From: Candidatus Onthoplasma sp.
GTDB lineage: Bacteria; Bacillota; Clostridia; Christensenellales; UBA1242
Length of the DNA stretch: 64,000 bases
Assembly: GCA_045126575.1 (NCBI GenBank)
Contig: JBGVOQ010000019.1
Span: forward strand, 39,876 to 103,875
Direction of reading: 5' to 3'
Shown here piece by piece: positions 45,565-47,221 of the stretch. Position 1 is the first letter of the stretch. The number at the start of each line of letters is the position of its first letter. The notes under the pieces were generated by a model, which was not told the origin of the DNA, searched no databases, and saw nothing but the letters and a program-made list of their open reading frames with translations. The translations under genes were made by a program, and so were the position numbers.

Positions 45565-46179
45565 ATGAAAACAAAAGTTAGTAAACTTAATATACTGCTA
45601 GTTGCAATAACATTGTTGCTAATTTTTGTTGCAGCATTTAATCTTTTTGGTCAAACCAATAGTTGGCTGGTTGCAGATGATACAATAGAGATATCAGTGG
45701 CGGTATCGGAGATTGATATTGAAGTTAAGCAGGCAGAGAGAACTGTGGAAAATGAGGGATTTATTTATCTTGGAACACAATTTATAACTGCCAATCAAAA
45801 GCACGATTTTGATGACGTTAATATTCATAATAATGAAATAACAAAAGGATATTACATAAGGTGTCAATTATTTGCCAAGATTGGTGATAAGTTGTACAAC
45901 ATTAACAACTGTGTAGAAAACGATTTGTATAAGAGTAGTGATGGTTGGATGTATTATACCAGCGGCAGTCAAAGCAAGGAAGCAAAGCAACTTGAAGCCA
46001 AATCGGACCAAGATGCAACAAAGGGCGTTGTACCTATAATTAAAAGTTTAACAATACCAGATTTGTTGGAAGATAATGCAGATGACGGCAAAGATGTGTA
46101 TTTTAGTAGTTGCCAAGGCAAGGTGTTTACATTGCACTTATTTATTGAAGGTACAGTAGCAAAATATACTATAGTTTAA
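45565..46179 (+). CDS. Small secreted protein, divergent TasA-like / SipW-substrate-like
   Basis: 204 aa. Signal-like LLVAITLLLIFVAAFNLFGQTNSWLVADD and C-terminal FTLHLFIEG. Paralogous to the ectodomain of the next ORF. Confidence 0.6.
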   Translation: MKTKVSKLNILLVAITLLLIFVAAFNLFGQTNSWLVADDTIEISVAVSEIDIEVKQAERTVENEGFIYLGTQFITANQKHDFDDVNIHNNEITKGYYIRCQLFAKIGDKLYNINNCVENDLYKSSDGWMYYTSGSQSKEAKQLEAKSDQDATKGVVPIIKSLTIPDLLEDNADDGKDVYFSSCQGKVFTLHLFIEGTVAKYTIV

Positions 46180-46198
46180 CTAATAAAAGGAGGAGATT

Positions 46199-47221
46199 AT
46201 GGCGGAATATAACAATTCATCAAATATCAATAACAATAGGCCTAATGGGGCAAATTCTGCAAATAGTGCTCCTCAAGGCTCACAAAATATGGGCAATAGA
46301 CCAAACTATCCACCAAGGTCATCTAATTACCCACCTAATCAAGCAAACGGAACTCAGCCAAGGCCGTTTAATGGTATACCAAGGCCAACAAGTATGTCGT
46401 CAAGGCCTGGAGCGCCACAAGGTGGTATACGAAATTTCCCACCAAGGCAGTCGGTTAATCCAGCGCAACGAACAGGGATTAATCAAGGTGCGCAGCAACC
46501 ACGAAATCCTAATCTTTCAAGTATAAATAGGCAGTCGGCAACCGAGCGATTTGAACGTGGAAGTAGAACCCTTTCACATATGAATGGTGGTACAACAGGT
46601 GCTAAATTATACAGGATTAATAGGCCTGACCAAGATGCAATGTCACGTAGACAAGTCGGTGGCGTTGTGTTGGATACCGAACTTATTCAGGACGCCAACA
46701 AGCAAAAATTAAACAGTACAAAAAGCAAGCAAAAAACCGCAGTAATTGTGGTATTAAGTGTGCTTTTAGCATTGTCGTTAGTGTATTTGATTTTTGCAAT
46801 AGCGGGATATTCAAAACAAAGTGCAAATCCTAACTGCAAATACAATCTAACAAGCGAAGTTTCTGCGCACTGGGTGGTTGATGATAACACCGAAACGGAG
46901 TTTAGTGTGCGTGAAGGGTTGTCAAGCGGAAAAATATACGAAATCGAATCAATTTTGGTTATCGATAGTGAGGATAAGGTTAATATAAGATTAACCATTA
47001 CAGCAACATTAGATGGTAAGGAAATATTTATATCGGGATTAGATAAATCGGCAGATAATCTAGTGCGTGTTGATGGCAAAAACACATGGGTTTATGTGGG
47101 CGGCCATCAAGGTGTTGGCGAAGTGTATTTATTTAACGGTATCGACTTTTTTGGAGCGCCTAACAACCTTACATCAGAGAATGTAAATATAACTGTGCAT
47201 GCCGAAATTACAAAGGCATAA
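46199..47221 (+). CDS. Bitopic membrane protein: P/N/Q-rich cytoplasmic region, one TM helix, TasA-like-paralogue ectodomain
   Basis: 340 aa. Residues 1 to about 180 are low complexity (NRPNYPPRSSNYPPNQANGTQPRPFNGIPRP...). TM helix is TAVIVVLSVLLALSLVYLIFAIAGY. The ectodomain starts SAHWVVDDNTETEFSV (compare NSWLVADDTIEISV in the 204-aa ORF). Confidence 0.65.
   Translation: MAEYNNSSNINNNRPNGANSANSAPQGSQNMGNRPNYPPRSSNYPPNQANGTQPRPFNGIPRPTSMSSRPGAPQGGIRNFPPRQSVNPAQRTGINQGAQQPRNPNLSSINRQSATERFERGSRTLSHMNGGTTGAKLYRINRPDQDAMSRRQVGGVVLDTELIQDANKQKLNSTKSKQKTAVIVVLSVLLALSLVYLIFAIAGYSKQSANPNCKYNLTSEVSAHWVVDDNTETEFSVREGLSSGKIYEIESILVIDSEDKVNIRLTITATLDGKEIFISGLDKSADNLVRVDGKNTWVYVGGHQGVGEVYLFNGIDFFGAPNNLTSENVNITVHAEITKA

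Follow-up and report, generated by a model that had tools for sequence, protein, structure and literature searches.

A putative membrane anchor and terminator of SipW-dependent, TasA-like fibres in Christensenellales-like Clostridia

The window analysed here, a 64,000-nucleotide stretch of a Candidatus Onthoplasma contig, carries two neighbouring open reading frames (ORFs), one encoding a secreted protein of 204 amino acids (aa) and the other a 340-aa protein made up of a long basic tail, a single hydrophobic helix and an extracellular all-beta domain. The same locus encodes a SipW-type signal peptidase, a large secreted protein of ~900 aa and two TasA-like proteins of 222 and 244 aa. We propose, with middling confidence, that the 340-aa protein is the membrane-resident terminal subunit of a SipW-dependent fibre of the TasA superfamily built by donor-strand exchange. 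The operon formed by sipW and the ~900-, 222-, 204- and 340-aa genes would, together with the separately promoted 244-aa gene, build a SipW-dependent surface fibre. The ectodomain of the 340-aa protein (~135 aa) would be a pared-down subunit fold, closest to that of the neighbouring 204-aa paralogue, and the hydrophobic stretch on its N-terminal side would be a true transmembrane (TM) helix and not a cleavable SipW-type signal peptide. By accepting the donor strand of the last subunit without being released, the protein would bring growth to an end and hold the fibre at the cytoplasmic membrane; the fibre cycle would thus be ended and the fibre fixed because the N-terminal helix of this paralogue cannot be removed. 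The basic disordered tail and the juxtamembrane motifs would remain inside the cell, where they may bind a partner or the membrane. The 340-aa protein would fit the role of an anchor because it has a subunit-like ectodomain, a fold that begins 6-7 residues past the helix and no A-x-A-type site nearby. An earlier note on this DNA had suggested a membrane-anchored base for the fibre, and this is still the best-fitting reading by analogy, as it matches what has been proposed for TafF and TafF1/F2 and the membrane anchoring of BsaA.

Results

Topology and family of the 340-aa protein

Both ORFs singled out in the earlier note were found, each preceded by a strong AGGAGG-type ribosome-binding site (RBS), as are all five genes called with an ATG start. 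That the 204-aa protein is secreted was borne out by a signal-peptide-like helix at its N-terminus (residues 7-27), which is followed by GQTNS/WL. In the 340-aa protein there is just one hydrophobic segment (19-residue stretches starting at residues 177-188, maximum Kyte-Doolittle value 2.98), flanked by five K/R in the 15 residues before it and two after, and the tail of the protein has a net charge of +16. Since the N-terminal flank is rich in K/R and the tail is basic, the protein is predicted to have its N-terminus inside and its C-terminus outside the cell. Hydropathy, charges and the AlphaFold2 (AF2) model agree on a single helix with the tail inside and the ectodomain after it, as had been described before. 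The ectodomain is all-beta, ~135 aa long, and its folded part begins 6-7 residues past the helix.

The tail consists of two parts. Residues 1-107 contain 20% N, 17% P, 11% S, 9% R, 9% G and 9% Q, and the tail ahead of the VGG motif 24% N+Q, 12% P (compared with 17% in residues 1-107) and 12% K+R. Four x-P-[PR]-R-x / x-P-R-P-x motifs lie in this tail (window positions 46304-46450), while the relative P0005 has seven. The recurrent motif can also be described as [aromatic/aliphatic]-P-P-R-[QPSA], and Tandem Repeats Finder detected no DNA repeat underlying the Pro-rich motifs. Residues 108-180 comprise a helix-like motif, SA-E-+-F/L-+-+-S..LSH..GG (SAEE+L++S.+.LSH.GG), and a juxtamembrane segment, R++VGGVVLD..IQDA..QKL, which leads into a basic cluster next to the helix; both are conserved in the family and the membrane-proximal motif is retained even in its distant members. 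We consider these conserved cytoplasmic motifs to be the most original feature of the 340-aa family. In the tail of ~180 aa, which had been described as rich in proline, asparagine and glutamine (P/N/Q), residues 108-180 go beyond low complexity in that they carry the conserved motifs.

In word-based searches, 11 proteins related to the 340-aa protein and 32 related to the 204-aa protein turned up; none was annotated, and their sources were metagenomes or metagenome-assembled genomes (MAGs) of Clostridia. A HMMER search of 1.84 billion representative proteins, with a query reaching from the conserved cytoplasmic motifs to the C-terminus of the 340-aa protein, gave 81 clusters of the 340-type family, and the statistics that follow were obtained on 90 full-length members. 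A single TM helix is present in 86 of the 90, the ectodomain has a median length of ~140 aa (range 110-262) and a plain signal peptide was found in none of the intact members. The tail is 24-301 aa long with a median of 113; the shortest tails probably belong to truncated ORFs, and intact ones start from ~59 aa. Its net charge is positive in all members but one. The relatives P0063, P0090 and P0045 bear an extra acidic Pro/Asp/Asn-rich extracellular extension at the C-terminus, with for example PDNPDNPDEPTDPD repeats, which the window protein lacks.

The composition of the tail varies within the family: it is P/N/Q/R-rich with x-P-P-R-x repeats only in close relatives of the window protein and S/T/K-rich in most others, where N+Q amounts to 1-13%. 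The tail had been likened to prions or condensates, a reading that we abandoned because the tail is high in proline and arginine and strongly basic and its P/N/Q content is not conserved; no formal prion predictor was run. The P/N/Q tail of the window protein appears, from the sequences compared, to be one flavour of a universal basic disordered tail.

An Asn-Cys pair (N212-C213, window positions 46832-46837) stands 7-9 residues outside the helix, with N in 82 and C in 67 of the 90 members. On inspection it was rejected as a lipobox, as it has no lipobox consensus, and as an intein-like Asn-Cys junction, as there is no intein fold.

We found no A-x-A-type site within ~10 residues of the end of the helix. 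Further out, ~18 residues past the helix, there is a motif of the form [AV]-x-[AC]/x-[WYF], which reads V-S-A/H-W at residues 221-225 in the window protein; the model places it within a beta-hairpin (strands 213-219 and 223-226, predicted local distance difference test (pLDDT) 74-84). Across the family, position -1 is A in 68 and C in 14 of the 90 members, position -3 is A or V in 67, and an aromatic residue follows. This pattern resembles the T-x-A/[YFW] sites of the other proteins of the operon and bears on the alternative in the earlier note, a SipW substrate whose n-region is very long. It suggests another role for the protein, that of an initiator like TapA whose pro-region would be giant: a peptidase, SipW or a different one, would cut between A223 and H224 and free a domain of ~117 aa, whose new N-terminus (HWVVDDNTETEF..) would be donated to the first fibre subunit, the 223-residue part being a long signal or regulatory pro-region. 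TapA of Bacillus subtilis, encoded by tapA-sipW-tasA, is likewise a minor, operon-encoded and envelope-associated partner of a SipW-dependent fibre with a small beta-sandwich and an N-terminal hydrophobic segment. Its signal sequence of 43 residues is removed by SipW, the freed N-terminus is donated and essential, and a complete immunoglobulin (Ig)-type fold is followed by a disordered C-terminus (PMC10151520); the top matches of the 340-aa model in Foldseek, none of them significant, are moreover of the macroglobulin type that TapA is said to resemble (PMC9245690). We nevertheless regard such an initiator as distinctly unlikely. A site ~18 residues beyond the helix is far for a membrane-bound signal peptidase and falls within the modelled hairpin, and a leader that is thrown away would hardly be expected to carry conserved cytoplasmic motifs. 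The 180-aa cytoplasmic tail also sets the protein apart from TapA. Nor was any likeness to TapA found: a profile of the 340-aa family had 0 matches at E <=10 among all PDB chains, TapA included, and TapA (PDB 6HQC/6QAY) was absent from the top 50 Foldseek matches of the 340-aa model.

Relationship between the 340-aa and 204-aa proteins

The two proteins had been called clearly related, which holds at the level of deep profiles only. In a pairwise BLASTP comparison, the best match was the stretch NSWLVADD/SAHWVVDD, with 8/25 identities and an E of 0.13, which is not significant, and a shallow hhalign comparison (11 versus 27 sequences) reached 1.8%, aligning only IRLTITATLDGKEIFI with IRCQLFAKIGDKLYNI. 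A deep hhalign comparison of 90 ectodomains with 34 sequences of the 204-aa family, mature part only, gave 89.9% (E 1.7e-6, score 46.3) over 93 columns, and the IRLTITATLDGKEIFI/IRCQLFAKIGDKLYNI pairing was found again inside this alignment. Controls in which the alignment of either side was reversed reached 0.3-0.4%, and 30 column shuffles and 30 shuffles of 8-column blocks gave a maximum score of 23.9 and at most 4.9%. The aligned stretches of the 340-aa ectodomain and the 204-aa protein include VNIRLTITATLDGKEIFI with YYIRCQLFAKIGDKLYNI, NTWVY with DGWMY, GEVYLFNGIDF with GVVPIIKSLTI and NVNITVHAE with VFTLHLFIE. The similarity of the C-terminal strands pointed out in the earlier note (FTLHLFIE and NITVHAEI) thus falls within the deep-profile alignment. 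The N-terminal motif on which the relationship had been based, NSWLVADD/SAHWVVDD, lies outside the confidently aligned region, so that this part of the claim is not upheld.

Independent AlphaFold models of the two proteins agree in secondary structure at 79 of the 93 aligned pairs, 46 of which are strand on strand, and sliding one model by 3-12 residues lowers the agreement to 35-57. The eight predicted strands are collinear between the two models. As the deep-profile score is far above the controls and the secondary structures agree, the 340-aa ectodomain and the 204-aa protein probably share a beta-sandwich core and are remote homologues. A similarity by convergence or chance, which would make the 340-aa protein an unrelated single-pass membrane protein beside fibre genes, has in its favour that the pairwise and shallow profile comparisons were not significant and that Foldseek returned generic sandwiches only; with the deep-profile score far above all 62 controls, the strands collinear and the gene order kept in nine other loci over large sequence distances, we consider it highly improbable.

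Place of the proteins in the TasA superfamily

The 222-aa and 244-aa proteins both carry the canonical G-x-T-Y-A-Y-F-S motif of the SipW type, and as families they are more closely paralogous than any other pair in the operon (hhalign 98.3%, E 1.6e-14). Among the relatives of the 244-aa protein, 32/39 match PF12389 (TasA/camelysin, Peptidase_M73) at E <=0.01, with a best E of 2.3e-6, and some database relatives bear a PF12389 match or the name 'SipW-like signal peptide'; the 244-aa protein itself matches PF12389 at an E of 0.0029, below the cut-off. The 222- and 244-aa proteins hence belong to, or border on, the TasA/BsaA/CalY family (PF12389, TIGR04088-type), operons of which with several paralogues have been described (PMC11580942).

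The 204-aa protein seems, from sequence comparison, to be a divergent TasA-like minor subunit. Its gene lies in the sipW operon, its N-terminal signal peptide ends in a T-N-S/W-L variant of the motif, and it has no TIGR04088 match. Its family reaches 97% in hhalign with the 222/244 families when the signal peptide is included and 88% with mature parts only. The 203-aa protein of the distant locus L007, which has GSTGAWF, matches the profiles of the 204-, 222- and 244-aa families and so forms a bridge between them. The AlphaFold model of the 204-aa protein (pLDDT 84) had as its best fold match in the PDB the TasA fibre 8aur_A, a weak match (Foldseek E 0.05, TM-score 0.31). Residues 28-51 have no structure in the model, which would suit a free N-terminal extension but is only suggestive.

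The position of the 340-aa protein in the TasA superfamily rests on its link to the 204-aa protein, since direct comparison with the 222/244 families was weak. Unlike members of the TasA family, the 340-aa protein has no N-terminal SipW-type signal peptide, its hydrophobic helix not being N-terminal, no PF12389 or TIGR04088 match, and an ectodomain ~90 residues shorter than mature TasA. Neither it nor the 204-aa protein matched PF12389 at E <=1, and Pfam and NCBIfam scans found no family for the 204-aa ORF. Weak matches of the two ORFs to FliL, ComGF and BBS2 were rejected as driven by the TM helix or by chance. Foldseek searches with the 340-aa model returned generic sandwiches only (macroglobulin-type, reeler, PapD-like, pilin and generic Ig-like), all at E >=0.016. 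Profile searches of the PDB with the 340, 204, 222+244 and 244 families gave no TasA, TapA or other meaningful match; TasA chains in the PDB are without the signal peptide, in which most of the PF12389 signal resides. In a comparison of the 340-aa ectodomain with the N-terminal part of the 912-aa ORF, as the ~900-aa gene was called mechanically, hhalign reached 6-9%, from which nothing can be claimed.

Conserved gene order

The genes around the 340-aa gene form a set that recurs in nine other metagenomic loci, from Christensenellales MAGs and from metagenomes; seven of these loci have it complete. The set consists of a giant lipoprotein, SipW, proteins of ~900, ~230 and ~200 aa and the anchored protein, to which most loci add a subunit of ~240 aa. 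Six species-level MAGs (L001-L006) have the order sipW, ~880 aa, ~230 aa, ~200 aa and 340-type gene; the ~240-aa gene is also present in L001, L002, L004 and L005, and rsmI continues the order in L002, L004 and L005. A distant 340-type member (E 7e-11) belongs to a cassette of giant, sipW, 845-aa, 230-aa, 203-aa and 254-aa genes in two metagenome contigs (L007 and L008), and a third, shorter contig holds the last four genes of this cassette. The sipW gene is present in L001-L008, and a giant ORF precedes it where examined, in L002, L004 and L007, with a fragment cut at the contig end in L008. In the distant cassette, sufC- and sufD-like genes come after the anchored protein (from position 8943 in L007). 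No 244-type gene follows there, so that in this cassette the second TasA-like subunit does not count among the fixed members.

In all nine loci, the 340-type gene stands directly behind the 204-type gene, across identities of 36-42% and lower. Because of this constant adjacency and the profile result, an origin of the 340-type gene by tandem duplication of a subunit gene fits the data. No regulator gene was conserved beside the 340-type gene in the loci examined.

Layout and transcription of the locus

The features of the locus are collected in Table 1; coordinates refer to the whole window and all features lie on the + strand. The giant protein upstream matched no family in a Pfam scan. The 176-aa peptidase matched TIGR02228 above the cut-off (E 3.6e-21) and the Bacillus SipW model NF046067 below it (E 7.3e-15). 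A mechanical ORF call of the ~900-aa gene (912 aa) begins at GTG 42128, inside sipW and without a strong RBS. The true start is probably GTG 42182, giving 894 aa, because the RBS aagggggaa precedes this codon and homologues begin with MRLGK... Pfam and NCBIfam scans of the ~900-aa protein gave no match, and its position and size would suit a tip or adhesin subunit. The candidate adapters are the 222- and 204-aa proteins, and the candidate major subunit is the 244-aa protein. An rsmI-like gene is next after the 244-aa ORF.

Table 1. Features of the fibre locus and parts of the 340-aa protein, in window coordinates.
Feature	Position	Strand	Basis
2799-aa giant protein, lipoprotein-type N-terminus (..SIIFFGCKDE)	33144..41543	+	ORF; upstream context gene
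SipW-type (archaeal/ER-type, endoplasmic reticulum) signal peptidase I, 176 aa	41638..42168	+	TIGR02228, SipW NF046067
Large secreted protein, 894 aa (probable start)	42182..44866	+	SipW-type N-terminus ..NLGSTWA/AG, homologue starts, RBS
222-aa TasA-like subunit (predicted)	44884..45552	+	SipW-type signal peptide (..IGYTYA/YFSS); weak TIGR04088/TIGR04090 matches
204-aa secreted protein	45565..46179	+	Signal peptide ~1-33, unstructured extension 34-51, beta-sandwich 52-197
340-aa protein, whole ORF	46199..47221	+	Tail / TM helix / ectodomain
Variable disordered basic P/N/Q/R-rich tail, residues 1-107	46199..46519	+	Composition, pLDDT <50
Conserved cytoplasmic juxtamembrane region, residues 108-180	46520..46738	+	Family alignments (one of 17 sequences)
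Single TM helix (N-terminus inside), residues 181-205	46739..46813	+	Hydropathy, flanking charges, AF2 helix 176-206
Extracellular all-beta domain, residues 206-340 and stop	46814..47221	+	AF2 pLDDT 71-88; begins at N-C motif 212-213
Hairpin and U tract, intrinsic-terminator-like	47257..47307	+	Free energy -25.7 kcal/mol, z -4.2, 0/200 shuffles as stable
Promoter-like site TTGACT-17-TATAAT	47372..47400	+	11/12 consensus match; ahead of 244-aa gene
244-aa TasA/camelysin-like subunit (predicted)	47542..48276	+	Canonical SipW-type signal peptide (..AFGGTYA/YFSA), TIGR04088 at cut-off

The gap of 320 bp between the 340-aa and 244-aa genes (47222-47541) holds both the terminator-like hairpin and the promoter-like site, and for this reason the genes from sipW through the 340-aa gene look like one transcription unit, with the 244-aa gene apparently under a promoter of its own. 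A bovine-gut metatranscriptome provides weak evidence, with a mean contig depth of ~18-22 (pieces ~20-32) over the start of the 244-aa gene compared to <=1.7 over the upstream genes; this is one sample, in which contigs are sparse and partly derived from related strains. The contig pieces over the 244-aa gene start at 47468 or later. The DNA of the window turns up in metagenomes of gut and faeces, bovine and sheep samples among them. Candidatus Onthoplasma and other Christensenellales MAGs are its closest named relatives.

The placement of the 340-aa gene in the sipW transcription unit, and not with the presumed major subunit, would also suit an accessory or regulatory membrane protein that is not itself a fibre subunit, such as a partner of SipW or an assembly platform, comparable in function to the DUF5305/TafG peptidase-accessory proteins, or a sensor that would signal the state of assembly outside to a cytoplasmic partner by way of its tail. 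Peptidase-accessory membrane proteins that bear an extracellular beta-sandwich are a frequent feature of TasA-superfamily loci (bioRxiv 10.64898/2026.01.04.697558), and the cytoplasmic motifs of the 340-aa protein are conserved across its family. However, Pfam and NCBIfam scans gave no match to DUF5305 or another family, the protein has one TM helix and a disordered tail as opposed to two TM helices and an alpha/beta cytoplasmic domain, its ectodomain is a probable homologue of a subunit paralogue, and no conserved regulator gene lies alongside. We therefore judge an accessory role to be unlikely.

Discussion

The closest known analogue of the 340-aa protein would be TafF, together with TafF1/F2. 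In haloarchaea, the Tat-fimbriae (Tafi; Tat, twin-arginine translocation) are encoded by loci that bring together a signal peptidase, a tip protein, an adapter, a major pilin and the membrane protein TafF, whose ~140-aa pilin-like domain would, in the published model, receive a donor strand from the last pilin (TafA) and thereby terminate and anchor the fimbria (PMC11821415). TafF of Haloarcula hispanica and TafF1/TafF2 of Natrinema sp. J7-2 are proposed to be the anchor and terminator of Tafi (PMC11821415, PMC12337348). The locus in the window has the same composition, with a dedicated signal peptidase, a large putative tip protein, candidate adapter or minor and major subunits and one membrane-spanning protein, and the 340-aa protein shows the architecture of the TafF type, a TM helix joined to a pilin-like domain of ~140 aa at a presumed fibre locus with its own signal peptidase. 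The two systems are likened by description and not by sequence: the one described here is bacterial, from Christensenellales-like Clostridia, and would be Sec/SipW-dependent, whereas the TafF system is archaeal and Tat-dependent. TafF of H. hispanica has three C-terminal TM helices compared to the single helix of the 340-aa protein, for none of the archaeal TafF proteins is there a description of a cytoplasmic tail that is basic and disordered, 60-300 aa long and provided with conserved motifs, and the role of TafF is itself a model.

Anchoring of a growing fibre at the cytoplasmic membrane has also been considered in Clostridia. Oligomers of BsaA are held at the cytoplasmic membrane of Clostridium perfringens, and in the model put forward for them the newest subunit, its signal peptide still uncleaved, accepts the donor strand of the growing chain before it is released by SipW (PMC11580942). 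The same idea underlies PapH and Mfa2 of chaperone-usher and type V pili: a paralogue of the subunits occupies the final place, whereupon growth ceases and the fibre is anchored. PapH and Mfa2 act in diderms, via ushers or outer-membrane lipoprotein anchors; they are likened to the 340-aa protein by function, with no homology implied.

Several points weigh against the 340-aa protein as a fibre anchor and terminator. No RNA contig covered the 340-aa gene in the one, sparse bovine-gut metatranscriptome. The 340-aa protein is tied to the TasA family through a series of weak links: comparison of the ectodomain with the 222/244 families reached 10-21% in hhalign, which is weak, Pfam and NCBIfam hold no family for the 340-aa protein, and the Foldseek search with its model gave nothing at E <=1e-3, with TasA absent from the top 50; the model itself was built on an alignment of only 11 sequences. 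The conserved [AV]-x-[AC]/x-[WYF] motif is compatible with cleavage by a signal peptidase. Finally, a conserved cytoplasmic region would be superfluous in a mere anchor.

The conserved cytoplasmic motifs and the basic disordered tail raise the prospect that the 340-aa protein acts as a transmembrane coupler, which would link the extracellular fibre, physically or by signalling, to a cytoplasmic partner. If so, it could control where and when fibres terminate or sense how strongly the fibre is loaded. Nothing of the sort has been described for fibres of the TasA type, and we rate a coupler of this kind as rather improbable. The evidence presented here covers the order of the genes and how it is conserved, the signals of topology, the remote homology and common secondary structure with the 204-aa family, and the SipW and TasA-family signatures of neighbouring genes; donor-strand exchange, a place at the base of the fibre, persistence of the uncleaved helix and any function of the tail are inferences.

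TasA-superfamily operons with several paralogues, tip proteins and anchors have already been described, and single-helix anchors of the TafF type have been proposed in archaea; a literature search found no paper linking SipW with Christensenellales. What appears to be new, judged from the sequences, is a bacterial, SipW-linked and N-terminally anchored subunit paralogue with a universal basic cytoplasmic tail.

Fibres of the TasA superfamily are a recognised, cross-domain way of making biofilm matrices and pili. How such fibres are stopped and fixed on monoderm cells is largely a matter of conjecture, as the role of TapA is debated, the anchoring of BsaA is unexplained and TafF has only been modelled. 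The unannotated 340-type family, with its 81 clusters, a common layout of tail, TM helix and subunit-like domain and a strictly conserved place in the sipW operon in the loci examined, is a clean genetic candidate for the dedicated protein that would anchor and terminate fibres in gut Clostridia. In summary, our analysis gives putative names to six otherwise hypothetical genes of abundant, uncultured Christensenellales of the animal gut.

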